Positions 5,580 through 29,061 of a stretch of DNA of 64,000 nucleotides are shown piece by piece. A program made the position numbers and the translations under genes. The stretch covers positions 4,015 to 68,014 of the forward strand of contig JAUYBG010000006.1 in assembly GCA_030693205.1 (NCBI GenBank), given 5' to 3'. Position 1 is the stretch's first letter, and each line of letters begins with the position of its first letter. The stretch comes from a bacterium. Lineage in GTDB: Bacteria; Patescibacteriota; Minisyncoccia; JAHIHE01. The notes beneath the pieces are model-generated. The model saw nothing but the letters and a program-made list of their open reading frames with translations, was not told where the DNA came from and ran no database searches.

Positions 5580-5987
5580 CTACTTTTTTCTCAACTTCGA
5601 CGACTTATATATTTCCGGATGAAAAGGGTTTAATTTAATTATTTGCGTCTTGACAAGGTCAAACGCAGTCAATTTTTCCTTTAACTCTTCAAGCATTACT
5701 TCCTGATCATATCCTAAACAAATCATATCTGGTTTGTATTTCTGAATCACTTTATATTTATCATCCAAATCTCCCAAAACTACCAAATCTGCTAATTTGC
5801 TTTCGGATATTGTTTTTTGCCTGGCAAGCTCATTATTTTTTAGCAACCCGCTTTTTACCTTAAAAACATTCTTGTCTCTGGCAACAATAATAATTAAAAA
5901 GTCTCCGTATTCTTTGGCCTGCCTCAAAAAATCCCTGTGACCCTCGTGGAATATATCAAATGTCCCAAACACCATTACTTTTTTCAT
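5580..5987 (-). CDS. Cytidylyltransferase-like nucleotidyltransferase (TagD / RfaE domain-II family).
   Basis: FGTFDIFHEGH is an HxGH nucleotidyltransferase motif. The ~135-aa size matches glycerol-3-phosphate cytidylyltransferase-like proteins. It overlaps the lysS start by 4 nt. Confidence 0.6.
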   Translation of the reverse strand: MKKVMVFGTFDIFHEGHRDFLRQAKEYGDFLIIIVARDKNVFKVKSGLLKNNELARQKTISESKLADLVVLGDLDDKYKVIQKYKPDMICLGYDQEVMLEELKEKLTAFDLVKTQIIKLNPFHPEIYKSSKLRKK

Positions 5988-7447
5988 TTCTTTATCTTAA
6001 TTTCTTTCGGTCGCATCAATGGAAATATCTGACATTCTTTAATCGGCTTATCCATTAAAAAAGAAAATAATCGTTCACTGAAGCCATGTCCGCAAGTCGG
6101 CGGCATACCGTATTCCAGCGCTTCAACAAAATCATAATCTGCCATTTGCGCTTCTTTGTCGCCGGCATCTCGAAGTTTTTGTTGATTTTCAAATCTTTCT
6201 CTTTGATCGACTGGATCATTAAGTTCGCTATACCCTTGGCCGACTTCCGAGCCAGCAATAATAAAATGGAATCTCTCGGTAATATTTGGATTGCTCGACA
6301 ATACTTTTGCTAATGGAGAAGTAAATTTTGGTTCATTAATCAATATAGCGGGTCCCCCGATATTTTTACGGCAATATTTCCATAACGCATCCACCATACG
6401 GACGCGATTATTTGCTTCTGATTTAATTTTCAATTCGTATAATTTTTCCTGTATTTTTTTATCATTATCTTGCCAAATATCTATGCCTGTTTCTTTTTTG
6501 ACAGTTTCGGTATAATCAATAATTGGCCAATCGGCGCCCAAATCAACATCAAATCCTCTAATTTTGAATCCAAGGGTGCCAAAAGTTTTTTGCGCCACAA
6601 AACGATAGCAATCACGTAAAAATTTATACATATCTTCAAAGTTTCCGTATGCCCAATATGCTTCGCATTGAGTATAGTCTTGAAGATGTTCGGTAGATAC
6701 TCCCTCGTTTCTAAAAATCCTGCCTATTTCAAATGTTTTTTCAAAGCCAGCCACCATCAAACGTTTTTGCCATAATTCGCCGGCAGAGATGCGTAAATAG
6801 ACATCCGTATCAAAAGCGCTATGATGGGTTACAAAAGGATTAGCGTCAGCACCGCCGGTTGTATTTTCTAAAACAGGAGTTTCTACCTCTAAAAATCCGC
6901 GCTGCAAATGAAATTCTCGAACAGCATTCCAAAATACAGACTTTTTTTTAATCATCTCTTTAATTTCCGGATTAAATAAAATATCTAAATATCTTTTTCT
7001 CAGTCTTTCTTCCTCGTCCTGAAGCCCATGCCATTTTTCCGGCAAAGGCAAAAGTGATTTTGCCAAAATCCTGCAATTGGAAACCAAAAGGGTTTTTTCG
7101 CCCTTTTTTGTCGTAAAAATTTTTCCCGTAGCCTCAATAAAATCACCGACATCAAAATATCCGATCAAGTCCCATTGCGACGGAATAAGATCGTCTTTCT
7201 TGAAATAAATTTGAAAACTGCCCGAATCATCAGCGATATTGGCAAATATGGATCCTCCGTGACCCCGAATCGCCATTAACCGGCCGGCAAGGATGATCTC
7301 GGCTGATTCCTTTTCAAGTTTTTCCGCGTTTAAAATTGCTTCATTTGTTTTATGAGATCTCGCGGTTTTAGCCGGATATGGATCAATCCCGGCTTCAGCT
7401 ATTTTTTTCATTTTTTCCAAACGTACGCCGCGAATTTTATTAATCAC
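5984..7447 (-). CDS. lysS: Lysyl-tRNA synthetase, class II.
   Basis: 487 aa with an N-terminal anticodon-binding OB region and class II motifs (FRNEG..., GGADANPF...). There is overall LysRS colinearity. Confidence 0.85.
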   Translation of the reverse strand: MINKIRGVRLEKMKKIAEAGIDPYPAKTARSHKTNEAILNAEKLEKESAEIILAGRLMAIRGHGGSIFANIADDSGSFQIYFKKDDLIPSQWDLIGYFDVGDFIEATGKIFTTKKGEKTLLVSNCRILAKSLLPLPEKWHGLQDEEERLRKRYLDILFNPEIKEMIKKKSVFWNAVREFHLQRGFLEVETPVLENTTGGADANPFVTHHSAFDTDVYLRISAGELWQKRLMVAGFEKTFEIGRIFRNEGVSTEHLQDYTQCEAYWAYGNFEDMYKFLRDCYRFVAQKTFGTLGFKIRGFDVDLGADWPIIDYTETVKKETGIDIWQDNDKKIQEKLYELKIKSEANNRVRMVDALWKYCRKNIGGPAILINEPKFTSPLAKVLSSNPNITERFHFIIAGSEVGQGYSELNDPVDQRERFENQQKLRDAGDKEAQMADYDFVEALEYGMPPTCGHGFSERLFSFLMDKPIKECQIFPLMRPKEIKIKK

Positions 7448-7452
7448 AATAT

Positions 7453-7911
7453 TTAAATTATTTTTATTATTTTATACATATTCATTCCTTTGGGAGTTTT
7501 TACGGCTACTTTATCGCCGATCTTCTTGCCCAAAAAAGCGGCGCCAAGAGGAGATTCATTGGAGATCTTGCCGATAACCGGATTTGATTCATTGCGTCCC
7601 ACAATTGTGAAATTATGGCTTCCAGTGCCATTTTCCGCCTCTATGGTGGAACCGATCTGCACCACTCCGATTTTCTTTGGCTCCTCGATAATTGACGATT
7701 CTTTTAACATTTTTTCTATTTCTCCAACTCTTATTTCAGATTCCGCTTTTGCGTCTTTGGCTGCGGAATACTCGGCATTTTCACTCAAATCTCCAAGCTC
7801 TTTTGCCTCATGAATACGCCGGGCAATTTCTTGTCTTTTGGTGGTTTTTAAATAATCCAGCTCTTCTTTTAATTTCTTGAAGCCTTCTTCGGTTAAATAG
7901 GTTTTCGCCAT
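7453..7911 (-). CDS. greA: Transcription elongation factor GreA.
   Basis: 152 aa. The N-terminal coiled-coil LTEEGFKKLKEELDYLK...GDLSENAEY is characteristic of GreA. Confidence 0.85.
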   Translation of the reverse strand: MAKTYLTEEGFKKLKEELDYLKTTKRQEIARRIHEAKELGDLSENAEYSAAKDAKAESEIRVGEIEKMLKESSIIEEPKKIGVVQIGSTIEAENGTGSHNFTIVGRNESNPVIGKISNESPLGAAFLGKKIGDKVAVKTPKGMNMYKIIKII

Positions 7912-8026: not shown

Positions 8027-9952
8027 CTATTTATCCTCAAAATACCAGCTCAAAACATCTTTTGCGACCGGAACCGCGTTTATACCGCCTTCTCCTCCAC
8101 CTTCTATTAAAATCGTTAGAACAATTTCCGGATCATCATATGGAGCAAAAGCCGTAAACCACGCGTGAGTCTTACCCGCATTGCCATATTCAGCGGTGCC
8201 GGTTTTTCCGGCTACTTTTACTTTTACATCCCTAAGCGATCCGCCTGACCCGCTCACGACAACCTCCCGCATACCGTCGCGGATAATATTAATATATTTT
8301 TGTTCGGCAATATTATCGTTAATTATCTGAGGCGCGAATTCTTTTGTTACACTGCCATCCTCGCTTGAAATTATTTTATCAACCAAATAAGGCTTGTAAA
8401 GCGTTCCACTATTGGCAAATACCGATGTCCATAAAGCGACTTGAAGCGGCGTAGTCAGAAGATAGCCTTGTCCAATAGAAATATGGTAGGTATTGCCGAT
8501 GGTCCATGGTTCATTCTTGCCTATATTGGCCAGTTTCCACTCTTTGGTCGGCACAAGGCCATTGGATTCATTGGGCAGATCAATGCCAAGTTTTTTTCCT
8601 AAATTAAACTTCCAAAAATATTCATCTATTTTTTCCACGCCAAGTCCGTTAAAATTTCCAAATCCTCCGCCAACCGTATAAAAGAAAATGTCCGAAGATT
8701 GCGCCATTGCGGAAATGATATTCATTGGCCCCAAACCTGAACGATTCCAACCATAAAAATCTTGATTATAAGCAGTGATCACGCCGCGATCTTCGATGAT
8801 CGTATTTTTATTTATAATTCCTTCGGATAGCGCAGCCGTGCCCATTACCGGTTTTATGGTCGAGCCCGGCGGATAAGTGCCGGATATTGCGCGATCAAAC
8901 ATCGGACTGAGCGGATCCTGGAAAATAGCGCTTATTTTATTTTTATTCGCGGGGTCCGCAAAAATATTATTATCATACGCCGGCAAACTCACCAATGCCA
9001 AAATTTTTCCATTCCGGGGATCCATCGCGATCGCTGCCGCGGCGCCGTTATTCTTTTCTTTAATTTTTATTTTTTTGGACATCTCGGCTAAAGTATCCTG
9101 AAGTTTTTTTTGCAAGTTTCCGTCTAAAGAAAGAATTAAATTACCGCCAGTTTTGGTTTCGGTTTTATTTAAAGTGAAAATAACTCGCCCGTTGGCATCA
9201 ATTTCCAAACTTTCTTTTCCTTTTTCGCCGCGCAAATATTTTTCATAATAAGCCTCAAGGCCTCCTTTCCCGATAAAATCGGCTGTTTCATAAGAATCAT
9301 CCGAACTTAGATCTTTTTGATTGACGCGTCCCGTATAACCGATTATATTTGAAAAATATTTCGCGTCCGGATACTCCCGTATAGCATTATTTTTTATTTC
9401 AAAACCGGGTATTTTTTCACCCAAAGATTCAATCGCCATCGCGCTCGTAATATCCAAATTATCCAGTATAAGTTCTGCTTTATAAGACGTACGGTCAATT
9501 TTTTCTAAATTACCACTGATCTCAGCGGGATCTCTTTTGGTAATTTTCGCGATATTTTCTACGATTTGCTTTAATTCATTTGCGTCGCGAGTAACCTCTT
9601 TGGGAATTGCCACTAAATCAAAGATCGCTTTATTTTTAACTAAAAAATTTTTATTTTTATCATAAATAATTCCCCTGTCAGCGTGGAAAGTAACTTCTTT
9701 TAAACGGTTATTTTCGGCTAAAATAGCAAAATTATTCGCGTCAATAACCTGAAGCTTGAATGTCTGCAAACTTAATACTCCGATCAAAACAATAATAATA
9801 GATATCGTGAATTTTGAATAAACACTAACCCGCTCGTTGCTGCCTAATATTTTTTCACCGCTATTGTGAATAAAAGGAGTAGTCTCTTCAAACTCCAAGT
9901 CGCTTGAAGTTTTTTTCTTAAGACGATATTTTGATGTTCCGGGCAAAACCAT
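8027..9952 (-). CDS. mrdA: Penicillin-binding protein 2 (transpeptidase).
   Basis: 641 aa with an N-terminal TM helix. Transpeptidase motifs are STIKP (SxxK), SSD (SxN) and KTGT. It sits downstream of mreBCD. Confidence 0.8.
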   Translation of the reverse strand: MVLPGTSKYRLKKKTSSDLEFEETTPFIHNSGEKILGSNERVSVYSKFTISIIIVLIGVLSLQTFKLQVIDANNFAILAENNRLKEVTFHADRGIIYDKNKNFLVKNKAIFDLVAIPKEVTRDANELKQIVENIAKITKRDPAEISGNLEKIDRTSYKAELILDNLDITSAMAIESLGEKIPGFEIKNNAIREYPDAKYFSNIIGYTGRVNQKDLSSDDSYETADFIGKGGLEAYYEKYLRGEKGKESLEIDANGRVIFTLNKTETKTGGNLILSLDGNLQKKLQDTLAEMSKKIKIKEKNNGAAAAIAMDPRNGKILALVSLPAYDNNIFADPANKNKISAIFQDPLSPMFDRAISGTYPPGSTIKPVMGTAALSEGIINKNTIIEDRGVITAYNQDFYGWNRSGLGPMNIISAMAQSSDIFFYTVGGGFGNFNGLGVEKIDEYFWKFNLGKKLGIDLPNESNGLVPTKEWKLANIGKNEPWTIGNTYHISIGQGYLLTTPLQVALWTSVFANSGTLYKPYLVDKIISSEDGSVTKEFAPQIINDNIAEQKYINIIRDGMREVVVSGSGGSLRDVKVKVAGKTGTAEYGNAGKTHAWFTAFAPYDDPEIVLTILIEGGGEGGINAVPVAKDVLSWYFEDK

Positions 9953-10445
9953 AAATTTTACTGTTTTTATAATATTTTATAAGACGATATCCAAAAACAC
10001 TAAGCGCGAAATTAAACAATATCTCTCCTGCTAAATTAATATCCATCAATTTGAAAATTCCCGCGTAACCCGTCGAGGCTTTCAAAAAAACATTCGCGAT
10101 CCCCAATAAAAAGTAAAACGCGGAAAAAGTGATCAAGCTGTTCAGTAAAAAATCCGAAAACCTTCCCCCTTTCAGGACATTTTCTCTTAAATAAAAACTT
10201 AACGAGTACGCGCCCAAAGCGGCTAAAGAAGTTGAACCAAAACTTACCGAGCTGACCAGATCTATCGTTATTCCCCCGACTATCGTTAAAATTAACATTT
10301 TTTCAAACGATAAAAAATAACATAATAAAAACAAAACAACGAGCGATAAATTGGGTGCAAATAAAAAAAAATCAAATAACCGGATAAAGCTTGTCTGGAT
10401 AATTACGCTTAAAATTAAAATTAAAATAGCATATGTAAGCTTCAT
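9918..10445 (-). CDS. mreD: Rod shape-determining protein MreD (polytopic membrane protein).
   Basis: 175-aa hydrophobic protein immediately after mreC. It overlaps mrdA. Confidence 0.6.
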   Translation of the reverse strand: MKLTYAILILILSVIIQTSFIRLFDFFLFAPNLSLVVLFLLCYFLSFEKMLILTIVGGITIDLVSSVSFGSTSLAALGAYSLSFYLRENVLKGGRFSDFLLNSLITFSAFYFLLGIANVFLKASTGYAGIFKLMDINLAGEILFNFALSVFGYRLIKYYKNSKIYGFARNIKISS

Positions 10446-10450
10446 TGAAA

Positions 10451-11245
10451 TTAATTTAATAAAATAAAAACTTTTTCTATTTTTTTCATATCGGCTAATG
10501 GAGAAAGAATGACCTTTTGGAATGTTTTGTTCGGATATTTTTCAACTGAAACAATTTTTGCCAGTGGAAATGCGGCAATACTGCCGCTGACCGGCAAAGT
10601 AACCAAAATATCATCCGCGTTGACTTCGGCATCCTGCAAAACCATATCGAAATACAACCCGATATTTTGATCATTTTTTACCAAACCTTGAACCCGAGTA
10701 TTTTGATCGATCGCGCTAATAACGCTTCGCCTATCGGTAAACAAAAGAACCCCGGCGGTATTTGCCGAAACATTGATTATCCTGCCGATATAAAAACCGT
10801 TTTGATCGATTACCGCCATATCCTTGCCAATCCCCGCTTCACTGCCCAAATTTATCAGTAAATAATCTGAAAAATTATAAGGATCTTTTCCAATAATCGT
10901 ACCGTCAACAAAAGAATGCTCTTTAATTAAAGGGAGACTAAGAATATTTCTTAACGTTTTATTTTCATTATTTACTTCCTTCAGATCAGAAATTTGCTTA
11001 CGCAGCTTATTATTTTCATCCATTAACAGAACTTTATCGTCGTATGCATTTCTTATTTCAAAGATCAAACGCAAAGAATCTTTTACGGAAAAATTTATTT
11101 TTGAAATAATAATTTCGGGATAATAAAAAAAATAGGAAAGTTTATTTTTAAATGCCTCCAAATAATTTTTATTGTTTAAAAAAATAATTATCACAATAAA
11201 AAAAATAGCGGCAAAAAATTTGATATTACGTTTAATCGGCCTCAT
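10451..11245 (-). CDS. mreC: Rod shape-determining protein MreC.
   Basis: N-terminal TM helix, a coiled-coil (LKEVNNENKTLRNIL) and beta-rich C-terminal domains. It lies between mreB and mreD. Confidence 0.7.
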   Translation of the reverse strand: MRPIKRNIKFFAAIFFIVIIIFLNNKNYLEAFKNKLSYFFYYPEIIISKINFSVKDSLRLIFEIRNAYDDKVLLMDENNKLRKQISDLKEVNNENKTLRNILSLPLIKEHSFVDGTIIGKDPYNFSDYLLINLGSEAGIGKDMAVIDQNGFYIGRIINVSANTAGVLLFTDRRSVISAIDQNTRVQGLVKNDQNIGLYFDMVLQDAEVNADDILVTLPVSGSIAAFPLAKIVSVEKYPNKTFQKVILSPLADMKKIEKVFILLN

Positions 11246-11277
11246 TTTACATTATCTGTTAAAACAATGGCTTAATT

Positions 11278-12330
11278 CTACGTTGGCACTTTTTCATCTT
11301 CAATTGAAACCAGAACCTCTCGCAAAGTATCGATGTTTTCAATAATAATACCGGTTCCCCTTACAACTGCGGTTAGGGGATCGTCGGCTATCCGCACCGG
11401 CATCTGAATTTCCTGATTAATTAATTTATCAATGCCTCTTAAAAGGCTTCCTCCTCCGACCAGAATAATACCTTGCCCCATGATATCCGCCACCAGCTCC
11501 GGCGGGGTTTCTTCGATCGTATTTTTAATATTTGAAACGATTATTCGCACGGAACGATTGATCGCTTTTCTTATCTGCTCATCGCTCACAATAACTTCTT
11601 TTGGCAATCCGGTAACCAGATCGCGCCCCCTGATCGGAACCTTGATAGTTTCCCCAAGCGGCCAAGCGGAACCGGATAAAATTTTAATTTCTTCCGCGGT
11701 TTTTTCACCAACCAAAAGATTAAATTCGTCCCGCGCATATTGAACGATATCATCATTCATTTCATCTCCCGCTACCCTTAAACTCCTGGAGGTCACGATG
11801 CCGCCCAAAGAAATGACCGCAATCTCGGTAGTTCCGCCCCCCATATCAACGATCATATTTCCAATCGCCTCTTGTACGGGAAGCTTAACTCCGATCGCCG
11901 AAGCCATCGGCTCTTCAACTAAAAAAACTTCTTTGGCGCCCGCCGAAAGCGCTGCGTCTCGCACCGCTTTTTTTTCAACCTGAGTTACTCCGCAAGGAAT
12001 TCCAATTACGACCGTGGGACGCGAAATAAAAGAAAAAAATTTTTCTGACGCCTTGTCGATAAAATATTTCAACATTTGCTCCGTAACTTCGAAATCGGAA
12101 ATCACGCCATCTTTAAGAGGCCTGATCGCGGTAATATATCCGGGAGTCCGCCCGACCATTATTTTTGCCTCACTCCCGACAGCCAATACTTGATTGGTTT
12201 TTTTATTTATCGCGACAACCGATGGTTCATTGATAACAATTCCTTTGCCGCGGACATAAACCAAAGTATTGGCCGTACCCAAATCTATGCCAATATCTCG
12301 CGAAAAAAATTTAAAAAAATCTTTGAACAT
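11278..12330 (-). CDS. mreB: Actin-like rod shape-determining protein MreB.
   Basis: 350 aa. GIDLGTANTLVYV and the phosphate-1/2 and adenosine motifs of the MreB/actin ATPase fold are present. Confidence 0.9.
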   Translation of the reverse strand: MFKDFFKFFSRDIGIDLGTANTLVYVRGKGIVINEPSVVAINKKTNQVLAVGSEAKIMVGRTPGYITAIRPLKDGVISDFEVTEQMLKYFIDKASEKFFSFISRPTVVIGIPCGVTQVEKKAVRDAALSAGAKEVFLVEEPMASAIGVKLPVQEAIGNMIVDMGGGTTEIAVISLGGIVTSRSLRVAGDEMNDDIVQYARDEFNLLVGEKTAEEIKILSGSAWPLGETIKVPIRGRDLVTGLPKEVIVSDEQIRKAINRSVRIIVSNIKNTIEETPPELVADIMGQGIILVGGGSLLRGIDKLINQEIQMPVRIADDPLTAVVRGTGIIIENIDTLREVLVSIEDEKVPT

Positions 12331-19729: not shown

Positions 19730-20447
19730 TCATTTTAAAAGCTGAGTTACTAGCGCCACCATCTGATCTTTTTCTTTCGGCTTGCTTTCGGCGATAAGAA
19801 TCGCCAAGGCCGTTAAAGCGTTGTCGTTGATTTTTCTTTCTCCGTTTTCCCGATACAAATAATCGTTTTTATCCAAAAAATAAACAAACATAAAAGAGCC
19901 GATGCGCTTGTTGCCATCGGAAAACGGATGGTCTTTCACGGTTAAATACAAAAGATGCGCCGCTTTTTCTTCGGTGCTGAAAATCAATCGCGCTCTGTAA
20001 TTCTTTGAATTTGCTTTTAGCTTCCAAAAGTCGTTTTTCATTTACAGCATAACCCTTAATCAAATAATCTTTAACTATCTTAGTCGCCCAAATTCTGAAT
20101 TGAGTAGCTCTTTCCGAATTTATGCGATAACCGACGGAAATAATTGCATCAAGATTATAAAACTGGGTTTTATAGATTTTTCCATCGGCGGCAGTATGTT
20201 CCAAAATGGAACTAACTGAATTTTTATTTAGCTCGGCAGTTTTAAAGATATTGCGGAGATGCTTGGTAATTGCCGGCCTTTGCGTGCCAAAAAGCAAAGC
20301 AATTTGAGATTGCGTTAACCAAATAGTTTCATTATCAAGTTTTACTTCAATTTGAATATCGCCGCCTTTGGGCTTATAGATGACAATTCCGCCTCTGTTG
20401 AATTGTTCGAGTTTTTTCTTTTTTAGCATAGTTTTTATGACTCGCAT
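19730..20447 (-). pseudogene. RhuM-family N-terminal domain fused to a Doc/Fic-type toxin domain. The gene is interrupted by a frameshift (ORFs 19869-20447 and 19730-20041 overlap in different frames).
   Basis: The N-terminal part aligns with the full-length RhuM at 28057-29061 (WLTQ..IA.LF...R..I..HL.NI, VGYR..S...TQFR.WAT). The C-terminal ORF carries the Doc-type motif HPFSDGNKRIG. The two frames overlap by about 170 nt. Confidence 0.55.
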
Positions 20448-20660: not shown

Positions 20661-23600
20661 TTAAGAAATAATTTTTATAATATCCTTAGTAACTAATTTT
20701 CTATCACGCTTTTCACTAATCCAATCGCTATATTTAACTCTGTAAAATACCCACCCTGCAGCTTCAAGTACACGCTGGCGTTCTTCGTCGCTTTCAATAT
20801 GAATACCGTACGCCTCGTCTATTTCGTCTTTGAAATGAGAAGGGCCATCGCACTCAACCGCAATACGCTTACCCGTATTTGTATTACTCACAACAAAATC
20901 AATCTTGAAACCGCAACTTTCAACTTGATTCTGAATTTTATAGCCGCGTTTTAGATTTGCACGCATAAGATTGAAAAATTCTTCCTCAAAATATGAATCA
21001 AATGGCTTGAGATCGGTTGAATAAAACGCAACTTCTCCATTTTCTTGCACATACTCAAGATATTTCTTGAGCCAGATTTTTTCTGGCATTTCTTGCGTAG
21101 ACAAACTAACGAAACAATGCACCTGTAATCTTGCGCGCGAAAAAGCGACATTAACTCTGCCTTTGTTTATATCGGCGCGTATATCTCCGCCCTCACCAGT
21201 TAGCGGAACATATTTGTTTTTTTGTTCAGGCGTCCTAATAACAAATGAATAAATTACAATATCTTTCTCGTCGCCTTGAATGCCCTCAATAATACTCACC
21301 TTGTAATTGTCGTCTTCTTCCTTAAAACCTTCCTTCTCAAAGAGATTGCGAATATAAGTCGCTTGAGCATTAAAGAAAGATAAAATGCCGATAGATTTAT
21401 CGCGATAGCGTTCGTCATCCCGCAACTCTTTGAATAGGTTTAATATCGCCTTTGCTTCAGCGATATTTACATTATCTGAAAATTCCTCGCTCCAATCTGA
21501 TTTTATTTCATGAACAAGCATTATGCGGTTTGTGTCTTTGTAGGTTAGATAATTACTATTGATTGAAATTAATTCTTTACCTTTAGGTTTATAAAAATAT
21601 TTATTACTAAAGCCAATCAATTCTACCGCAGAACGATAATGGTAATGTAAGGGTTTTTCCATAAAACCACGATTTTTTGCAATATCTAAAACGGACTGAA
21701 CGGCATCGCCTGTCGCTTTGATTTGTTTATCTACTGGTATTTTATATGTATGCGCGAGTTGATCAAAAAACTTATTTGATTTAAACATTATCGTACTATC
21801 GCGCATTTGCTCGCTATCGCCAACAAATAAAACTCTATTTGTGCGATACATAACCGGTAAAGTGTAAGCAACGTTGCATTGCGATGCTTCGTCTAAAATT
21901 ACGTAGTCAAAAATTCCGGCTTCAAGCGGAATAATACGGCTTGCGTCATCAAGTTCCATAATCCAAACGGGAATTAAATCCAAAATTGCATTAAAATTAT
22001 TTACATCTTTTCGGAGATTATCAAACGTCTTAAACGCTTTTTTTGATTTTCCGAAAGCTTTTGCTAACTTGTTAACTATTTGCCTAATTGTTATCCCTTC
22101 TTTCCATTTTTTAAGAATTCCTTCATTGATAATATTCTGGATATAAAGTCCAACGCGCTTAACCCGTTCCTGTTCGGTGTGCTTTAACGCAGAACCTATT
22201 TTATTAATACTGTCTGTTTTTGCCAATTTCTGTAATTCCGATTTAATTTCCTGTGTTCGTAAGATTTTATTTTTAATTTCTTCTAAATTGGCAATTGCGG
22301 TGTTGTCAATTTTTCTATCTAAAATTTCAAACTCATCATCAGAAACTCCGCAAGTACTCAATTTTTGTCGCAATTTTTCCTCGGCATTTTCCAAACATTG
22401 AATATTTTCATAGTAACAACAATGATTATAAAGACAATCGAGCGTTTTTGCTTGTTCATTCCGCGACATACTACTTATCAAAATTTTATCTATGTAATCG
22501 ATAATTTCTCGTGGCAATTTTTTTCGAACATTACCAAGCCGAAAATTGCGACTAACATTGTTAATCTTGCGAAAAAAGTTTGAATGTCGATCGTATCCAG
22601 TTTTCGCAACATCATCTCTTAATTTCCCTATGGCCTCGGCAAAATGTTCGCCATTTAGATTAAGGACAGAAAGAAGATGGTCAAGTTCTTTTTTTTCGTC
22701 GCTTCGCTCATATTTTCTGATAATTTTGCCGATTGTTTCTATCTCTGCTTTTGCATTTTTAATTTCTCGCCATTCGTCAGATGAAAAACTTCTTGCAAAA
22801 CATCCAAAATCAGAAATATCTATATCGTATTCTTTAAGTTGTAATAACTCTTGATGAAGTTGGTATATTTTTCTTTGAATAGTGATAATTTCATTAAGAG
22901 CTTCCCGATTTTTTTCTTTTTCCCCAACAATTTGATCAATTGCCGGAATTGATATGTTTTTTCCACTATATTCTACTAAATGCCTTCTTGCGTTAAATTT
23001 ATAACCAAGTTTTTCAATATGGGAACCGAGTGCACTTAATTGTGGCGCTATTCCATCTGCTTCGTCTTCTTCCCCAATTTGTGCTGAATTTGGATTGGGC
23101 AGATAGCCGAATAAATATTTTACATCAAGCTTTTTGAGTTTATCTTTTACAACTTTGAGAGCTTGCGCTTTTTGACTAACAAAAAGCACGCGATTGCCAG
23201 TAGCGGCAAGATGACAAAGTATATTTGAAATTGTTTCTGACTTACCGGTTCCAGGTGGCCCTTGAATAATCGCCCCTTTATTGCCAAGAATTGAAAGAGT
23301 GGAAAGTTGGTATTTGTCGTAGAGAAATGGAAAATATAAATCTTTTTCATGGGGAGTTTCACCCTCAACGTTTAACTCATCGTTTTGTGTCCAGCTCGTA
23401 AGTGCGGTTTTAGCAAGTTCTTCTTCTGTTAGCTGGGAGAGTTTGGCTAAATCTTCAGCAAGAAAATAATTCGCCTTTGGGCTTAAGGCAATTTTAATTT
23501 CTTCAAGCGAAAAAGATTTTTCATCAAAATTAGCGTTTTTAAGTCGTAATTGGGCTTTTATTTTGTGCCAAATTTCTTTAAAAATTAATAAATCAGTTAT

Positions 23601-24233
23601 GGGCAAAGAAAATTGCCCTTCAATTTCATATTTACCCATTTCTTCCAAAAGCTGAAAATATAAATCCTCGCCAAGTATTGGTTCCAACATTCCTATATTT
23701 ACTTGGACTTCTGGATCAACAAAATAAATAGAGTACTCTTTAGCGCCAGTTTTTTTGTTAAATTCTTGTTCTATTTTTACTGGCAATGAAAAAAGTGGAT
23801 AACGGTCAATTTTAGTTTTAACTGGTTTTTCTTCCACATTTTCCTCTTGTTCTTCTGATGAAATAATATCGCCATTGCTTTCAATGGGAATTTCAATTTC
23901 AAAATACCCAAAACTTAATATGATCTGCTTTGTGTATTGATCATTTTTATATTTGCTATAAATATCGTCTATTTTATTTGCCAGCTCTTTTTCCTTTTCG
24001 TACTCGTCCATTTCATCTTTGGGAACATCCTTTGGATCATATTTGTAAAAAGTTTTTAGATCAATCAATTCTGCGATTTTTTCATCCGTGTCTCCGTTCA
24101 ATAAACCAAGTAATCCAAAAAGTTCTGCTGGTAGAATAACAGAATATTTTTGCTGTGCCAATATCGTATGTGCTCGGGTTAATTTTATATAACCAAGACA
24201 ATACTTAATGAAATTTGAAAGGTTATTGTCCAT
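20661..24233 (-). CDS. SF1 (Upf1/DNA2-like, AAA_11/AAA_12) helicase with an N-terminal DUF4011-like region and a C-terminal DUF559-type PD-(D/E)xK endonuclease domain. Putative defence helicase-nuclease.
   Basis: LYFPF...IIQGPPGTGKSETISNI is a DUF4011-to-Walker-A junction. A long coiled-coil insert follows. Motif II is YVILDEASQ, and helicase C-terminal motifs are present. The last ~110 aa read KIDFVV...KRIAVECDGPSHF...AGW.FYR, the DUF559/Vsr-like nuclease signature. Confidence 0.75.
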   Translation of the reverse strand: MDNNLSNFIKYCLGYIKLTRAHTILAQQKYSVILPAELFGLLGLLNGDTDEKIAELIDLKTFYKYDPKDVPKDEMDEYEKEKELANKIDDIYSKYKNDQYTKQIILSFGYFEIEIPIESNGDIISSEEQEENVEEKPVKTKIDRYPLFSLPVKIEQEFNKKTGAKEYSIYFVDPEVQVNIGMLEPILGEDLYFQLLEEMGKYEIEGQFSLPITDLLIFKEIWHKIKAQLRLKNANFDEKSFSLEEIKIALSPKANYFLAEDLAKLSQLTEEELAKTALTSWTQNDELNVEGETPHEKDLYFPFLYDKYQLSTLSILGNKGAIIQGPPGTGKSETISNILCHLAATGNRVLFVSQKAQALKVVKDKLKKLDVKYLFGYLPNPNSAQIGEEDEADGIAPQLSALGSHIEKLGYKFNARRHLVEYSGKNISIPAIDQIVGEKEKNREALNEIITIQRKIYQLHQELLQLKEYDIDISDFGCFARSFSSDEWREIKNAKAEIETIGKIIRKYERSDEKKELDHLLSVLNLNGEHFAEAIGKLRDDVAKTGYDRHSNFFRKINNVSRNFRLGNVRKKLPREIIDYIDKILISSMSRNEQAKTLDCLYNHCCYYENIQCLENAEEKLRQKLSTCGVSDDEFEILDRKIDNTAIANLEEIKNKILRTQEIKSELQKLAKTDSINKIGSALKHTEQERVKRVGLYIQNIINEGILKKWKEGITIRQIVNKLAKAFGKSKKAFKTFDNLRKDVNNFNAILDLIPVWIMELDDASRIIPLEAGIFDYVILDEASQCNVAYTLPVMYRTNRVLFVGDSEQMRDSTIMFKSNKFFDQLAHTYKIPVDKQIKATGDAVQSVLDIAKNRGFMEKPLHYHYRSAVELIGFSNKYFYKPKGKELISINSNYLTYKDTNRIMLVHEIKSDWSEEFSDNVNIAEAKAILNLFKELRDDERYRDKSIGILSFFNAQATYIRNLFEKEGFKEEDDNYKVSIIEGIQGDEKDIVIYSFVIRTPEQKNKYVPLTGEGGDIRADINKGRVNVAFSRARLQVHCFVSLSTQEMPEKIWLKKYLEYVQENGEVAFYSTDLKPFDSYFEEEFFNLMRANLKRGYKIQNQVESCGFKIDFVVSNTNTGKRIAVECDGPSHFKDEIDEAYGIHIESDEERQRVLEAAGWVFYRVKYSDWISEKRDRKLVTKDIIKIIS

Positions 24234-24344
24234 AATATTACTTCTTTTTCCTTCTTAAGCTTTATTAATCGCAATCTTACCCCAATTTGGGCTTAAAATT
24301 AATGAAAAAACGGCTGAAGAGCAAAGTTACGGATTTTCTCGTAT

Positions 24345-24529
24345 TTTTCCACCAGCGCTTTAATTTTTTCTTTGGCTTGTTGTTGCGTAATTGTTTTCCT
24401 TAAACTAAACTTCTACATTATCTTACCCCAAAACCTCCATAAAATCAAATAAAAAAATCCGGCGAATTTAATATTTCACCGGCTTGTCTTTTGGCAAATA
24501 ATTCATTTCTTGCCTTTTTTCAAAATCTT
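24345..24529. repeat. ~185-bp direct repeat, copy 1 (about 98% identical to 27896-28082). It carries a TTGATT-N17-TAAGAT promoter pointing at the helicase gene, and it also encodes the C-terminus of the ATPase fragment.
   Basis: Alignment of 24345-24529 with 27896-28082 shows only about three mismatches. Confidence 0.85.
24410..24438 (-). promoter_or_regulatory. Sigma70-like promoter (TTGATT-17-TAAGAT) inside repeat copy 1, about 180 nt upstream of the helicase-nuclease ATG.
   Basis: Minus-strand read: TTGATTttatggaggttttggggTAAGAT. The same module sits upstream of the rhuM ATG (29090-29118), and with TATAAT upstream of murC. Confidence 0.5.
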
Positions 24530-24722
24530 GCCTTTGCACTACTTCGTTCATCTGTAAATATCTTTGGGCTGAAATTCTTTTTGTAGGACTATTTACCTGT
24601 TCAAGCTTTGACCCGAATCTGGTTTTACCAGCCCCGTTTGCACCAATAATTACCATATTTTTTTCAATTATTATAGTTTCTTGTTCGCTACTATTAGATT
24701 TTGGAATTTGAATATTTTTCAT
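24468..24722 (-). pseudogene. Truncated N-terminal fragment of an AAA_15/AAA_21-type ATPase (Walker A only).
   Basis: IIGANGAGKTRFGSKLEQ is a P-loop, followed by about 40 aa and then a stop. The last ~20 codons are read from the 185-bp repeat, in a different frame from the RhuM copy. A full ATPase would exceed 350 aa. Confidence 0.55.
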
Positions 24723-24867
24723 ATCTTTTTATTTTCTATAATCTTAATTTCCTCTTCTGTCAACCCATACAGCTCATAAACTTTTTGGTCAATTCTTTTT
24801 AAATTAATATTTTTAATTCGACACTCAATTTTTAAACATAATCTATTTTATACTATCATCCTAAATT

Positions 24868-25626
24868 TTATTTTGACAGTTTAATTAAAATTTTAATAAT
24901 TTCTATAATATCGTGGTTATGCCTCTTAGAACACATGGCAAAAATTTTCATTATGTCAAACAACACATCCGCATTATTTTTGTTTATTATATATTCTAGT
25001 ATATCACTATTTTTCGAAGAATGTCCTATCAAACCGGAATAATTGCTAAATGATTTAATTGGTATGCAAAAATATACCATCGGTTGAACACCCGTTGCAT
25101 ATTGTTGTTTTTGTATAGATACCTCTACTTGCGTATTGTCGGCCGTTTGAATCATAAAAAGAGTTGGCAGTTTTATACTTGTTTCTTCAAAATTCATTCC
25201 ATTAAGAACTATTTTTGAGTTATGTTCAATTGCAATTTTTTTGTCATCTATAAAATCATTATATTTTTTAATTTCCTCCAATAACTTAGTAATTTTTTCA
25301 ATTGATACCAAGCCAACTTGTATTCCATCATAAATAAGTTCGGAAAGTTCATAAAGATATTTTGTTTTGCCGTTAGCGCCGATAAAAGTTAATCGTTTTA
25401 ACCTTGTGTCTTTTTTGCCATTCACAACATCATTTACAACAGCATCGTAGCCGATTTGCCATTCAAGATATACACTCTCGTCAAAATTTCTTGTTCTAGC
25501 GGCAAAAGTATCGCCAAACTGCAAATTATTCTTTCTCGTCTTAAATCTAAATTTTCCAGAATTTGATGCGGGAATTTTTATAATTATTTCCTTATTTTTT
25601 GTAATATAATCCATATATATTTTCAA
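24868..25626 (-). CDS. Hypothetical 252-aa protein (ORF-A). A candidate restriction endonuclease or effector partner of the adjacent methyltransferases.
   Basis: No recognisable motif. It is co-directional with ORF-B with a 4-nt overlap, and divergent from the two MTase genes. Confidence 0.35.
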   Translation of the reverse strand: MKIYMDYITKNKEIIIKIPASNSGKFRFKTRKNNLQFGDTFAARTRNFDESVYLEWQIGYDAVVNDVVNGKKDTRLKRLTFIGANGKTKYLYELSELIYDGIQVGLVSIEKITKLLEEIKKYNDFIDDKKIAIEHNSKIVLNGMNFEETSIKLPTLFMIQTADNTQVEVSIQKQQYATGVQPMVYFCIPIKSFSNYSGLIGHSSKNSDILEYIINKNNADVLFDIMKIFAMCSKRHNHDIIEIIKILIKLSK

Positions 25627-25970
25627 TAATTAATTGCTTTATTTATTATTTTTTTAAATTCTTTTGTAATGTCCTTAACGGAATTGATTTTTATACTATA
25701 ATTTATTCCCGGATATTGCATATAGCTAGCACTAACAAAACCGGGCATGTTCGGTTTATCTTTTAGCGAAAAACCGACATCAAGCTGAATTCCTGATAGT
25801 GTTTTACCTCTATAATATATAACAAAAACCATTTTGTCTTCTATGAAATAGCTAACATAAATTGGAAAAACCCGATAATCTATACTGGGGCTGCTAAACA
25901 TAATAATTTGATGTAATTTATCAAAGACTAGCCATTTGTCGCCCATTTTTTTTCTTAAATCTTCCAACAT
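25623..25970 (-). CDS. Hypothetical 115-aa protein (ORF-B), translationally coupled to ORF-A.
   Basis: ATGA overlap with ORF-A. A TAAGAT -10-like box lies 12 nt upstream of its ATG. No known domain was recognised. Confidence 0.35.
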   Translation of the reverse strand: MLEDLRKKMGDKWLVFDKLHQIIMFSSPSIDYRVFPIYVSYFIEDKMVFVIYYRGKTLSGIQLDVGFSLKDKPNMPGFVSASYMQYPGINYSIKINSVKDITKEFKKIINKAINY

Positions 25971-26035
25971 ATAGTTATTTTATCTTAATCTTGCCTAAAA
26001 ATCTATTAAGCCATTTTCTCAATTGATTTTCTTAA

Positions 26036-26064
26036 TTGATTTTTTGCTTAATATTTGATATTAT
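26036..26064 (+). promoter_or_regulatory. Sigma70-like promoter TTGATT-17-TATTAT for the MTase operon, preceded by an 11-bp direct repeat (caattgatttt x2) that may be an operator.
   Basis: TTGATTttttgcttaatatttgaTATTAT lies 49 nt before the 26113 ATG. The direct repeats are at 26019-26030 and 26032-26043. Confidence 0.45.
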
Positions 26065-26112
26065 AAGTATAGAGCAGATTTTCATATTCTGCAATAATAG
26101 GGTAAAAATTTC

Positions 26113-26751
26113 ATGCAAAGTAATATTTTAAATACAATTCAAAACATTGATTGTTTGGAGGGATTTAAAATAATTCCCGACAGCTCAATTGATCTTATTT
26201 TAACAGACCCGCCCTATGGATTAAATAAAACTGGGATAAAAAATGACCACGACCTAAGTTTATTTTATTTGTCTTTGCCAGAAAGCCATAGAGTATTAAA
26301 AAATGATTCTTTTTATATCACTTTTTTTAGCACAAAATTTTTACCGGATATTTTCAAAAATAATCCTTTTCGGTATTTTTGGAATTTCATTTTATACTGT
26401 CCGAACGGAAGTGTAATGTCACCTATTGGTTTTACTAAATATATGTCCTGCGTTGTTTTTAAAAAAGGTAATCCTAAGTTGATCAAAAGAGGTAAAGATA
26501 TTTTTCTAGACACACCGGGCAGAATGATTGAACCAGATGAAGGATTCATAAACCACCCTACGCCAAAACCCAAAACATTCATAAAAGAATTACTAATGCT
26601 TTTTTCAAAAGAAAATGACATTATCCTTGATCCGTTTATTGGAAGCGGAAGTACGGCAGTCGCTTGTAAACAATTGAAAAGAAATTATATAGGTTTTGAA
26701 ATTAGCAATGATTATTGCAACTTAGCAAACGAGAGATTAAAAAAATTTTGA
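26113..26751 (+). CDS. DNA N6-adenine / N4-cytosine methyltransferase, beta-class (motif IV precedes motif I).
   Basis: DLILTDPPYG (motif IV, DPPY) appears near the N-terminus. LDPFIGSGSTAVAC (motif I, FxGxG) appears near the C-terminus. 212 aa. Confidence 0.8.
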   Translation: MQSNILNTIQNIDCLEGFKIIPDSSIDLILTDPPYGLNKTGIKNDHDLSLFYLSLPESHRVLKNDSFYITFFSTKFLPDIFKNNPFRYFWNFILYCPNGSVMSPIGFTKYMSCVVFKKGNPKLIKRGKDIFLDTPGRMIEPDEGFINHPTPKPKTFIKELLMLFSKENDIILDPFIGSGSTAVACKQLKRNYIGFEISNDYCNLANERLKKF

Positions 26752-26752
26752 T

Positions 26753-27883
26753 ATGAATAATAAACAAGAAATTTTAGGCCAATATTTTACCAAAATTGAA
26801 ATTGTCAGAAATTTGGTAGATTTAGTTTTATCAAACAAACATTATAAAAATAGCATTAAAATACTTGAACCTTCTTTCGGAACCGGAAATTTTATCAAAG
26901 CACTAAAAGAGAAGAATCTTTCCAATATTGAAGGCTGTGAAATTGACGAAGAGTTAACCAAAAATCCGTCAGATTTTTTTAATATGCCTTTTGAGAAAAA
27001 ATACGACTTAATCATCGGCAATCCGCCTTTTAGTAAATATAATTTAAAAGAAAGCTACTTTAATATAAACAAACATCTTAAATTTAACGCATTAGCTTCT
27101 GTTTATTTAACAAAAAATGAGCTAAGAAAAGATAAAGAAAAAATTGAGAACATTTTTTTGCTCAAAAGCTTAAAACATTTACAAGATAATAATTCATCTA
27201 TTGGTTTTGTCTTACCCATCTCATTTTTTATAAAAAATAGAAATAAATCCATAAAAAATGAATTATTAAAATATTTTTCTACCATTATCATTTATCAAAA
27301 CGATAAGGTTTGGTTCGATAAAAATATTCCCTGTTGTTTTGCTGTTTTTACCAATTCCGACAAACTAAAAAATAAAATTGTTTTAATATATGAAAATGGT
27401 AAAAAAAATAAAGAAGTATTTAGCATAAATAATATCCATGAAGAATTAATTCCCCAAGTTGTTTATCATAAAAACAATGGGTATATAAAAAATGACATAG
27501 GAACGCCTTTGTCGGAATTTTTTGAAACAAAAAAGATAAATATAAAAAAATCATACGAGGAAAATAATATTTCGGCAAAAAATATTCTTGAAAAAAATAT
27601 AATTCCAGAAAATAAACTCACTGAAAATTATAAAATTGCTGTCGTGAGAGTCGGAAATTCCAGTGTCGGAAAGTGTGGTTTGATAAACGAAAAAGAAGAT
27701 ATTTTAAATGATATGTTTTATATCTTTGATGTAAAAAATCAATATATTAAAAATAAACAAATAAAAGAAAATATCTGTCGTCAAATAAATAAAAATATTG
27801 ATTATTTTAGAAATATAACTTGCCGAGTTGGGAGTAAATCAATTAAAAAAGAGGATATTTATAATTTTAAAGTTAGCATTTAA
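26753..27883 (+). CDS. DNA N6-adenine methyltransferase, gamma-class (TaqI-like) with a C-terminal target-recognition region.
   Basis: QYFT near the N-terminus, ILEPSFGTGNF (motif I) and IIGNPPF (motif IV, NPPF) in gamma order. It starts 2 nt after the upstream MTase stop. Confidence 0.75.
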   Translation: MNNKQEILGQYFTKIEIVRNLVDLVLSNKHYKNSIKILEPSFGTGNFIKALKEKNLSNIEGCEIDEELTKNPSDFFNMPFEKKYDLIIGNPPFSKYNLKESYFNINKHLKFNALASVYLTKNELRKDKEKIENIFLLKSLKHLQDNNSSIGFVLPISFFIKNRNKSIKNELLKYFSTIIIYQNDKVWFDKNIPCCFAVFTNSDKLKNKIVLIYENGKKNKEVFSINNIHEELIPQVVYHKNNGYIKNDIGTPLSEFFETKKINIKKSYEENNISAKNILEKNIIPENKLTENYKIAVVRVGNSSVGKCGLINEKEDILNDMFYIFDVKNQYIKNKQIKENICRQINKNIDYFRNITCRVGSKSIKKEDIYNFKVSI

Positions 27884-27895
27884 AGCAACAATGCC

Positions 27896-28082
27896 CTTTT
27901 TCCACCAGCGCTTTAATTTTTTCTTTGGCTTGTTCTTGCATAATTGTTTTCCTTAAACTAAACTTCTACATTATCTTACCCCAAAACCTCCATAAAATCA
28001 AATAAAAAAAATCCGGCGAATTTAATATTTCACCGGCTTGTCTTTTGGCAAATAATTCATTTCTTGCCTTTTTTCAAAATCT
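27896..28082. repeat. ~185-bp direct repeat, copy 2. It overlaps the last 8 codons and 3' flank of rhuM, and contains a promoter module plus the start of a short ORF (MQEQAKEKIKALVEK...).
   Basis: See copy 1. Confidence 0.85.
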
Positions 28083-29061
28083 TTTTCACTTCCCTGTCAA
28101 AATCGGAAATATAATTTTTATCCCGCTCTTGACGATATTTTTCATATTCTTGCAAAGCTTTATCTTCCGCCTGTTTCGCGCTCACTGTGCCAGCCGAATG
28201 CAATAACTTTTTCTCTGAAATAGTCAAAAATTCATCCAATTTTGTAATCCAATCCCGCATTTTCATCAATCGACCAGAAGCGGCCTGCAATTCCGCAAAA
28301 TCAATATAGAGCGAAACGATCAGATTTAATTGATTTATTTCCGATTCGGTCAAATAATTTTTCGCAACGACAATATCGTCAGTGGTAATATAATTTCTTT
28401 TAAAACTTGTAAGCCCCATCAAAGGTTTTTTACTATCGACTCGCTGAGTGATAATTTCTGCTGCCGTATGTCCATGCACGGCAAAATGCATTTTATTTTG
28501 CACGGTAGCGAAAAATTTTTGCGTCAATTCGGCATCAATCTTATAATCGATGCTTGTCGCATAAATATCAGTCACTTTCTGATAAAACATCCGCTCACTA
28601 CTACGAATATCCCGCACGCGCTGCAATAACTCTTGAAAATAACGCGCCCTGCCACCTGCCTGTTTGAGCCGTTCGTCATCTATTGTAAAACCCTTAATTA
28701 AATATTCCCGCAATCTTTCTGTCGCCCATTGGCGAAACTGCGTTCCCTGTTCAGACCGTACACGATAGCCAACCGCCAAAATAACATCAAGATTATAATG
28801 TTTAACATCACGCGCAACTTCTCGCAAAGCTTCTTTCTGAACTATCCGGAAATTCCGGATAGTTGAATTTTCATCCAGTTCTCGTTCTAAATAAATATTT
28901 GCTAAATGTTCATTAACAGTGCGTATATCGACATTAAAAAGTTCCGCAATTAGTTTTTGCGTCAACCAAACATTTTCATCTTCAATTCTAACGCGAATTT
29001 TTTGCTCATCGCCAAAGGTTTGATAAATAACAATTTGCGGTTTTTTAATTTCCTTTTTCAT
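28057..29061 (-). CDS. rhuM: RhuM-family (virulence protein RhuM / Fic-Doc-associated) protein, full length.
   Basis: 334 aa. The N-terminal half is a paralogue of the 19869-20447 ORF. The conserved VGYRV.S..GTQFR.WAT region is present. Confidence 0.7.
   Translation of the reverse strand: MKKEIKKPQIVIYQTFGDEQKIRVRIEDENVWLTQKLIAELFNVDIRTVNEHLANIYLERELDENSTIRNFRIVQKEALREVARDVKHYNLDVILAVGYRVRSEQGTQFRQWATERLREYLIKGFTIDDERLKQAGGRARYFQELLQRVRDIRSSERMFYQKVTDIYATSIDYKIDAELTQKFFATVQNKMHFAVHGHTAAEIITQRVDSKKPLMGLTSFKRNYITTDDIVVAKNYLTESEINQLNLIVSLYIDFAELQAASGRLMKMRDWITKLDEFLTISEKKLLHSAGTVSAKQAEDKALQEYEKYRQERDKNYISDFDREVKKILKKGKK

Follow-up and report, generated by a model that had tools for sequence, protein, structure and literature searches.

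As a rule, restriction enzymes are phosphodiesterases. The only known exception is formed by the base-excision restriction endonucleases (REases), on which work has been almost confined to Pyrococcus, Helicobacter, and Campylobacter. The enzymes of this HALFPIPE family, with R.PabI as a representative, are metal-independent and carry no PD-(D/E)xK, HNH, GIY-YIG, or PLD motif (PMC10273834). The PabI systems have been described as pairs of one methyltransferase (MTase) gene (M) and one REase gene (R), in which only gamma-type M.PabI homologues are found (Kojima and Kobayashi, PMC4615327). The two genes are arranged tail-to-tail in archaea, and M lies upstream of R in bacteria (PMC4615327). The locus considered here is part of a stretch of 64,000 nucleotides (contig JAUYBG010000006.1, positions 4,015 to 68,014), called the window in what follows, from an uncultivated Patescibacteria-like metagenome-assembled genome (MAG), a kind of host unlike those of the published PabI systems. 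Four genes make up a cassette of ~3.0 kb (24857-27895), namely an R gene (open reading frame A, ORF-A) preceded by a small gene (ORF-B) on the (-) strand, and two amino-MTase genes, M1 and M2, transcribed divergently from them. A mobile PabI-family type II restriction-modification (R-M) cassette probably accounts for the locus as a whole.

The R gene is intact. It probably starts at the ATG at 25614 (24868-25614, -, 248 aa), 8 nt past the ORF-B stop codon, because its homologues are 245-250 aa long and their alignments begin there; a TTG at 25626 is an alternative start that would yield 252 aa (24868-25626). The junction between the two genes reads ...TAT TGA AAA TAT ATA TGG..., so that the genes would overlap by TTGA if R begins at the TTG, and not by the ATGA first proposed. 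ORF-B and R are tightly linked, for which no overlap is required, and they are presumably co-transcribed, ORF-B lying directly upstream on the same strand. ORF-A matches the Pfam family PF09522 (RE_R_Pab1; 6.6e-23, 81.5 bits, gathering cut-off 25) and the PADLOC model REase_II (1.7e-13). By phmmer, it aligns with the structure of R.CcoLI from Campylobacter coli (PDB 7cfa) across residues 18-248 of 252 (7e-27), and with the R.PabI structures 2dvy (1.2e-12) and 3waz (about 1e-12). An AlphaFold (AF2) model built from 24 homologues has a predicted local distance difference test score (pLDDT) of 87.4, and a Foldseek search of the PDB with it returned 16 matches at E<=1e-3, every one of them an R.CcoLI or R.PabI chain. 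Its template-modelling scores against 7cfa_A (TMq/TMt) are 0.78/0.82, and the next match beyond the PabI set has E=0.04.

The original prediction had seen no recognisable REase motif in ORF-A and had suggested an R-M system with an unrecognisable nuclease. The latter holds, as ORF-A is a PabI-family REase that misses every classical nuclease motif, and the former is right for the classical nuclease folds; the Pfam match, in contrast, is well above threshold. No nuclease motif was visible at first because the HALFPIPE family lacks the classical ones, and the fold that structure prediction recovered is the PabI half-pipe, with PabI-family structures as its only PDB matches. Neither ORF-A nor ORF-B shows homology to housekeeping proteins. 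PF09522 is carried by all of the more than 900 homologues of ORF-A, and at least two of them, from Paceibacterota and Patescibacteria-group MAGs, are named 'R.Pab1 family restriction endonuclease' by NCBI. The kind of system is therefore already known, since Pfam and NCBI name such proteins.

The residues of R.CcoLI that matter for catalysis and recognition have been defined. The glycosylase triad Y68/H211/D214 of R.PabI corresponds to Y52/H222/D225 of R.CcoLI, which in addition has an apurinic/apyrimidinic (AP) lyase residue, K71, positioned by a mesophile-specific beta-sheet insertion, with D53 and N67 as neighbouring residues (PMC7806768). Its bases are read by K17, R19, E47, Q49, and Y168 for G, by Q164 and M166 for T, by I50 and F215 for A, and by Q158 for C, and these ten residues are common to R.PabI and R.CcoLI (PMC7806768). 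In the phmmer alignment to 7cfa, where the chain numbering is offset by +3, all ten GTAC readers, the triad, and K71, D53, and N67 are identical in ORF-A. Counted from the TTG, the equivalents in ORF-A include K25, R27, E55, Q57, I58, Y60, D61, N85, K89, H236, and D239. The catalytic and recognition columns are invariant or at least 90% conserved across the 24 homologues; of the catalytic residues Y60/H236/D239, which are equivalent to Y56, H232, and D235, the first two are invariant and the third is conserved in at least 90%. The insertion after the catalytic tyrosine is also present and is 10 aa longer than that of R.CcoLI. In fold, length, triad, lyase lysine with its insertion, and GTAC contacts, ORF-A is thus like PabI of Pyrococcus abyssi, HpyAXII of Helicobacter pylori, and CcoLI, and, as in other PabI-family systems, its gene adjoins that of an adenine-type MTase. 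Judged by its sequence, ORF-A is a complete member of the R.PabI/HALFPIPE family of restriction DNA glycosylases, and its predicted activity is the removal of adenine from GTAC that is not methylated, followed by nicking at the abasic site so formed.

By analogy with the biochemistry of the family, a homodimer of ORF-A would unwind unmethylated GTAC, flip the adenines out, and hydrolyse their N-glycosidic bonds without a metal ion. The two close, opposed AP sites would then give rise to a double-strand break, either through beta-elimination by the enzyme's own lysine or through host AP endonucleases, and the resulting ends would be hard to religate. N6-methyladenine in GTAC would block excision, and the GTAC sites of the host would be protected by N6-adenine methylation from M2, M1, or both. 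The system is most likely a GTAC-specific type II R-M system. Some observations weigh against this specificity. It is a prediction from residue conservation, and GTAC is only mildly depleted in the window (Markov observed/expected ratio (O/E) 0.68; 44 sites vs 61±7 in shuffles). Site avoidance does not single out GTAC, because ACGT, CATG, and CTAG are depleted about as much. Two other tetranucleotides are more skewed in the window, GGCC being strongly under-represented (103 observed vs 194 expected, O/E 0.53, z -8.6) and GATC over-represented (O/E 1.26, z +5.4). Such skews might reflect contact with a HaeIII-type system, now or earlier; none is found in the part of the window examined.

The two methylases differ in class, as originally stated. 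M1 (26113-26751, +, 212 aa) has the beta order, with motif IV (DPPY, residues 32-35) before motif I (FxGxG, here F-I-G-S-G). It matches PF01555 above threshold (9.5e-30, 104.6 bits, cut-off 26.7) and thus has the features of a beta-class N6/N4 amino-MTase. Its similarity to the structure of H. pylori 'DpnA' (3e-16) covers only the region of the AdoMet-binding motif. M2 (26753-27883, +, 376 aa) has the gamma order, F-G-T-G (FxGxG) followed by NPPF, and is TaqI-like. All four genes of the cassette lie at the coordinates first given for them in the six-frame list of open reading frames, in which the gap between M1 and M2 turns out to be 1 nt (26752) and not 2. The best PADLOC match of M2 is MTase_II (1.4e-20). 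M2 has no Pfam match above threshold, and its sole solved relative is M.TaqI (1.3e-4, over the catalytic domain).

Membership of M2 in the M.PabI/HpyAXII family was considered and rejected. A hidden Markov model profile of seven M2 sequences found no match at E<=10 to the canonical gamma MTases L001M407, L049M383, and L013M394 (L numbers designate related loci throughout). Moreover, by BLASTP M2 has only its catalytic core in common with the C. coli M gene that adjoins R.Pab1 (28% identity over 178 aa). The canonical enzyme of L001, in contrast, is 40% identical over 336 aa (1e-70) to that C. coli gene, which is annotated on a conjugative plasmid upstream of an 'R.Pab1 family restriction endonuclease'. 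The profile does match, with E-values of 1e-8 to 1e-10, gamma MTases encoded in L068, L072, and L076, whose own relatives, at about 1e-20, include the MTases that pair with Tsp45I-like REases. By these comparisons, M2 is a gamma-class enzyme outside the canonical family.

The setting of such methylases was surveyed in a pattern scan in which each GTDB species was represented by a single genome. It yielded 49 loci with ORF-A relatives at 28-91% identity, whose neighbours were classed by phmmer. The hosts are Patescibacteria/Saccharibacteria, Omnitrophota, Planctomycetota, Deltaproteobacteria-type MAGs, Atribacterota, Nautiliaceae, and others, and the nearest copy of the window cassette is in a Patescibacteria MAG. 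With Mbeta standing for the M1 family and Mgamma for the canonical M.PabI/HpyAXII-type family, the commonest layout is the three-gene operon Mbeta-R-Mgamma (15 loci and one variant). It is followed by R-Mgamma (11 loci, and one with a split R), by Mgamma-R (6 loci, including the one from the epsilonproteobacterial Nautiliaceae), which is the order published for bacteria, and by R-Mgamma-Mbeta (2 loci, and one with Mbeta on the opposite strand). Types with M2 and Mbeta make up 5 loci. M1 homologues, 62-88% identical, adjoin R.PabI homologues in 26 of the 49 loci, mostly directly upstream of R and co-directional with it, and a pair of beta and gamma methylases is present in 24. M2 is absent from 40 or more loci. 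It replaces the canonical Mgamma in the sub-lineage of the window (L004, L008, L011, L012, L014, L015, and L057), and the M1-M2 tandem is kept beside R.PabI homologues in seven independent loci (62-90% identity). According to a text search, a second methylase is not mentioned in a 2023 review (PMC10273834). A literature search for R.PabI together with Patescibacteria returned no papers.

The pairing of two classes had been taken as a possible sign of a type IIS-like system with an asymmetric site, in which each strand has its own methylase. The 1-nt spacing of M1 and M2, and their difference in class, would suit such a system, and adjacent amino-MTases of two classes do occur in type IIS systems. 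ORF-A, however, belongs to a homodimeric family that reads the GTAC palindrome, all of its palindrome-reading residues are conserved, and it has no separate cleavage domain, the whole 248 aa aligning to R.CcoLI. Besides, either methylase is dispensable in relatives with a single MTase, M1 in L057 and M2 in most others, where it is absent. A type IIS-like system is thus very unlikely. DpnII, MboI, and LlaDCHI provide a precedent for two methylases of different classes that serve one palindromic site, one of them being a small beta-class enzyme active on single-stranded DNA. The window resembles these systems in having one REase and two amino-MTases of different classes, one of which is a small beta-class PF01555 protein, although the enzymes and the site (GATC) are unrelated. 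Pairs of beta and gamma methylases are thus a recurrent design of the environmental PabI clade and no signature of an asymmetric site. PabI systems of uncultivated bacteria possibly have, as a rule, a second, beta-class methylase with a DpnA-like role.

Which of the two methylases protects the host has to be considered together with the origin of M2. Wherever contigs are long enough to check, a gamma MTase lies beside R, and M1 is often absent. In L057 (at 3563-3830), M1 has suffered a clean internal deletion of ~560 bp, and M2, ORF-B, and a 248-aa R are intact. Because a gamma MTase accompanies R in these contigs and L057 has lost M1, M2 would be sufficient for protection and M1 would be an accessory second methylase. 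Against this stand the unrelatedness of the target-recognition domain of M2 to that of the known GTAC-specific M.PabI-type enzymes, as judged from its sequence, and the fact that its nearest relatives pair with other REases, so that M2 could be a second, independent methylase. In addition, the choice of the essential partner between the methylases is based on one metagenomic contig, L057. It might be, then, that only M1 is cognate to the PabI enzyme, and that M2, perhaps with ORF-B, is a hitch-hiker or a leftover from another type II system with a different specificity. In line with this idea, M2 shares only the catalytic core with the canonical family, homologues of ORF-B lead the operons of the L068, L072, and L076 gamma MTases that the M2 profile detects, and M1-type genes are those tightly and widely coupled to this R clade. 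The conservation of the M1-M2 tandem in the seven loci, the retention of M2 with an intact R in L057, and the frequent lack of M1 in contigs where R has a gamma partner nevertheless make it improbable.

That the four genes move as one ~3.0-kb unit is shown by comparison with L004, L008, and L057. By blastn, these loci are 85-88% identical in DNA to the window over 24825/24857-27888/27895 only, and they are flanked differently, by gyrB at one end and at the other by a gene for a YgjP-like metallopeptidase (PF01863, 1.7e-44). In the window, the insert is bracketed by two direct repeats of ~186 bp, copy A on the left (24344-24529) and copy B on the right (27897-28083), which are about 98% identical (2 mismatches and 1 indel). 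Copy B starts 2 nt after the end of the homology of the cassette to L004 (27895). It encompasses the 3' end of a RhuM gene (28057-29061), a terminator-like hairpin, and ~115 bp beyond, and both copies hold the last RhuM codons and an identical hairpin, CCGGTGAAATATTAAATTCGCCGG. From its sequence, the whole looks like an insertion with a long (~186-bp) target duplication. A 37-nt motif beginning ATCTTACCCCAA occurs at 24274, 24420, and 27973, two of these copies being inside the 186-bp repeats and the extra upstream copy being 73% identical. The GC content falls to 0.24-0.30 at 24-28 kb vs about 0.32-0.46 elsewhere in the window, which makes the region a compositional island. Mobile units at rearrangement junctions and decay of R in related copies are also features of the published PabI-family systems (PMC4615327). 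Such decay is seen in the Patescibacteria MAG that carries L008, where an in-frame stop splits R into 167 + 70 aa (6001-6747). Immediately upstream of the cassette, gyrB is found at 1522-3540 in L008 and at 267-2297 in L057. The PabI loci of H. pylori, H. acinonychis, and H. cetorum also adjoin gyrB (PMC4615327), and this shared adjacency is probably a coincidence.

Between repeat copy A and the cassette lies a P-loop ORF (24468-24722, -, 84 aa), which had been noted as a truncated ATPase gene on the strand of ORF-A, and it is indeed real, truncated, and so oriented. On this basis a three-gene module of ORF-B, ORF-A, and ATPase, dependent on modification or coupled to the ATPase, had been put forward. 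Apart from the position and orientation of the ORF after ORF-A, this proposal can draw on a weak similarity of its N-terminal part to AriA and PtuA, the matches to ATPase families being sub-threshold (AriAB 8e-8, PtuA 3e-6). But the homology of the cassette stops short of it, at 24825/24857, and tblastn found no counterpart of the fragment in 56 related loci (L001-L056). In other copies, such as L057, a YgjP-like metallopeptidase gene follows R, and no ATPase gene. Furthermore, R.PabI enzymes are reported to be inhibited by methylation and not dependent on it (PMC4357717). Such a module is extremely unlikely, and the ORF was rejected as a third component of the system. Unique inserted DNA encodes its first ~64 aa, with the P-loop, and copy A, the duplicated RhuM flank, encodes its last ~20 aa. 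The composition of the ORF marks it as a chimeric passenger remnant outside the system.

The gene that precedes R, ORF-B (25623-25970, -), encodes a basic protein of 115 aa (pI 9.4). Its model has the order alpha-beta4-beta-alpha, apparently a DUF5655/YjbR-like alpha-beta fold, and its top structural match among viral proteins is annotated DUF5655. With Pfam DUF5655 (PF18899) it scores 16.3 bits, below the cut-off of 24, but 14 of 35 members of its family match that entry, at best with 2.6e-10. No significant match was obtained by sequence in the PDB, and none by tblastn in annotated plasmids and phages. A word-indexed search detected 4 relatives in 5.8 billion clusters, and a full HMMER profile search of 1.84 billion proteins detected 38 cluster representatives of 100-140 aa. 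YjbR/MmcQ proteins are considered to be 'double-wing' DNA binders like MotA, and in defence contexts they are joined to EVE domains and to nucleases (PMC7641849). A distant relative in fold is McrB-N (PMC3424535). Most members of the ORF-B family are basic (pI 9-10), which is weak evidence in AT-rich genomes. Unlike MmcQ/YjbR (PF04237) and DUF5655 proteins, ORF-B is below the Pfam threshold, stands alone at 115 aa, and is linked to type II R-M.

That linkage was found in all 15 resolvable arrangements, where the ORF-B homologue directly adjoins genes of type II R-M systems or methylases and has their orientation. A look for pairs of ORF-B and ORF-A beside MTases in other genomes had been suggested, and such pairs do occur, for example in L001, L004, L008, and L057. 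The last three share the order of the window, with ORF-B before R.PabI and the M genes divergent. In L001, ORF-B is followed by R.PabI and Mgamma, in L005 by an R remnant and Mgamma, and in L060 an HTH_17 gene (HTH, helix-turn-helix) comes before ORF-B and R.PabI. In L011, ORF-B leads Mbeta and M2, which are convergent with R.PabI. Other partners are an EcoRV-family REase gene, with HTH_3 ahead of ORF-B and a convergent D12 MTase gene (L062/63), and Mgamma followed by a Tsp45I-family REase gene (L064, L066). In L068/69, HTH_17 and ORF-B precede an Mgamma-like gene and the gene of a 326-aa PD...E-x-K protein; the order is the same in L076, where the gene upstream of ORF-B is not resolved. L072 has HTH_17, ORF-B, and an Mgamma-like gene, and ORF-B is followed by a beta MTase gene in L070 and by a D12 MTase gene in L079. 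Lastly, the homologue closes the operon in L074, after Mgamma and R, and in L077/78, after R.EcoRV-like and M.D12 genes. The partners thus include PabI-, EcoRV-, and Tsp45I-like REases and alpha, beta, and gamma MTases, and the ORF-B family is an R-M-linked accessory that is independent of the fold of the enzyme. A literature search found no association of DUF5655/YjbR with type II R-M, DUF5655 appearing only in an unrelated context.

Two of these loci hold further unusual genes. Convergent with the HTH_3, ORF-B-like, and EcoRV-family operon of L062 is a gene (5976-7679, -) for a 567-aa fusion of a LexA DNA-binding domain, an S24 peptidase, and a D12-class adenine MTase; R-M control through a methylase that cleaves itself as LexA does would be unusual. 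The proteins of 326/327 aa encoded at 5445-6425 in L068 and at 1463-2446 in L076, downstream of the ORF-B-like and gamma-MTase genes, have no Pfam or PADLOC match but carry a PD...(x14)...E-H-K motif and are candidates for a novel PD-(D/E)xK REase. In L068, the element that carries this gene also encodes a tyrosine integrase and a large serine recombinase.

In position and distribution, ORF-B recalls the controller (C) proteins. These Xre-type HTH proteins regulate type II systems such as PvuII, BamHI, AhdI, and Esp1396I. As in such systems, a small gene lies directly upstream of R, on the same strand and divergent from the M genes, and its family recurs across unrelated R-M systems. The divergent layout, with ORF-B leading the R transcript, might allow separate control of M and R, and ORF-B may serve type II R-M operons as a regulator or accessory that binds DNA, possibly a controller analogue. 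However, having no HTH and apparently a YjbR/DUF5655-like alpha-beta fold, ORF-B is not a member of the C-protein family. Several findings further weigh against a regulatory role. No match to an HTH family was found in ORF-B, its homologue is the final gene of the operon in L074 and L077/78, and a true small HTH gene stands ahead of it in L060, L062, L068, and L072, which weakens a simple 'C protein' reading. Nor was an operator-like (C-box) repeat conserved across divergent loci found at the ORF-B loci compared (13 ORF-B upstream regions, an alignment of the three closest, and a repeat search), in contrast to the C-protein systems. Because of the last-gene positions and the four arrangements with real HTH genes in front, the proposal that ORF-B is a DNA-binding regulator, an analogue of C proteins in position and distribution, is made with low confidence.

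Alternatively, ORF-B might be another kind of R-M accessory, such as a reader of DNA state or of modified bases or a partner of the enzymes, with the adjacent HTH genes being the true controllers. The HTH_3 or HTH_17 genes directly upstream in four arrangements and the two arrangements with ORF-B last would agree with this, as would the fusions of YjbR-like domains to EVE modified-base readers and nucleases (PMC7641849) and their distant relationship to McrB-N (PMC3424535). The partners, on the other hand, have no fold in common (the REases are HALFPIPE, EcoRV-like, and Tsp45I-like, the MTases alpha, beta, and gamma), contrary to what a specific protein-protein partner would imply, and this alternative is doubtful. 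The present data do not separate 'reader' from 'regulator'. More broadly, and tentatively, the family could be a previously unrecognised class of non-HTH accessories of type II R-M, double-wing DNA binders that control or license unrelated R-M systems either as analogues of C proteins or as sensors of DNA state.

The divergent intergenic region between the two gene pairs (25971-26112, 142 bp) contains a block of ~60 nt that is conserved in the alignment with L004 and L008. An imperfect inverted repeat inside this block is kept among three close relatives, and nothing is common to the divergent loci. Other elements are specific to the window, namely an 8-nt inverted repeat and a 13-bp tandem duplication at 26013-26038 (ATTTTCTCAATTG / ATTTTCTTAATTG), which is single copy in L004 and L008. 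One sigma-70-like match is directed toward M1 (26036-26064). Promoters were not assigned, because promoter-like matches are not enriched over shuffles (28 vs 23±4.7).

The cassette lies in a defence island with RhuM genes on both sides. On the right is the intact RhuM gene whose 3' end is duplicated (28057-29061, -, 334 aa, 1.9e-111). On the left, an N-terminal ORF of the RhuM family (192 aa) overlaps a C-terminal Fic/DOC ORF (103 aa) at 19730-20447 (-), and the two look like a frameshifted RhuM-Fic gene. Between this gene and the insert, 20661-24233 (-) encodes a 1190-aa superfamily 1 (SF1) helicase (AAA_11/AAA_12) with a C-terminal MTES_1575/DUF559 nuclease domain. Its best matches are to PDC-S37 of PADLOC (7e-75) and, in NCBIfam, to ProA (1e-69) and Hhe (3.5e-49); all of them fall well short of the equivalog cut-offs. 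It is a candidate for a stand-alone defence gene. The PabI cassette of L001 is surrounded by another defence island. Past its ORF-B, R.PabI, and Mgamma genes, 8382-11490 holds a PDC-S42-like gene (3.5e-34), an HEPN_Cthe2314 gene, and an SMC_N/AAA_15 ATPase gene; this ATPase has no homology to the P-loop fragment of the window at tblastn 1e-3.

Relative to the published PabI M+R pairs, the cassette of the window differs in having two MTases, of which the gamma one is not an M.PabI homologue, in the divergence of its M genes from R, and in the extra DUF5655-like gene that precedes R. New with respect to the published accounts consulted are this combination, in which a beta MTase and a gamma MTase of non-canonical type diverge from R and its DUF5655-like leading gene, the prevalence of beta and gamma pairs in environmental PabI systems, the exclusive association of the ORF-B family with R-M, and the long flanking duplication. 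For annotation, the lesson is that 'methylases plus unknown ORFs' can hide a glycosylase-type REase. The ORF-B family offers a concrete, testable candidate for an R-M regulator or accessory factor of a new type. With the locus of the window and its ~50 relatives, the PabI family proves to be widespread in uncultivated phyla (Patescibacteria, Omnitrophota, Planctomycetota, Deltaproteobacteria-type MAGs), where Mbeta-R-Mgamma, a layout absent from published descriptions (PMC4615327, PMC10273834), is the usual one. The swap of methylases in the sub-lineage of the window, in which a non-canonical gamma MTase presumably protects against the same enzyme, amounts to a natural experiment in specificity matching.

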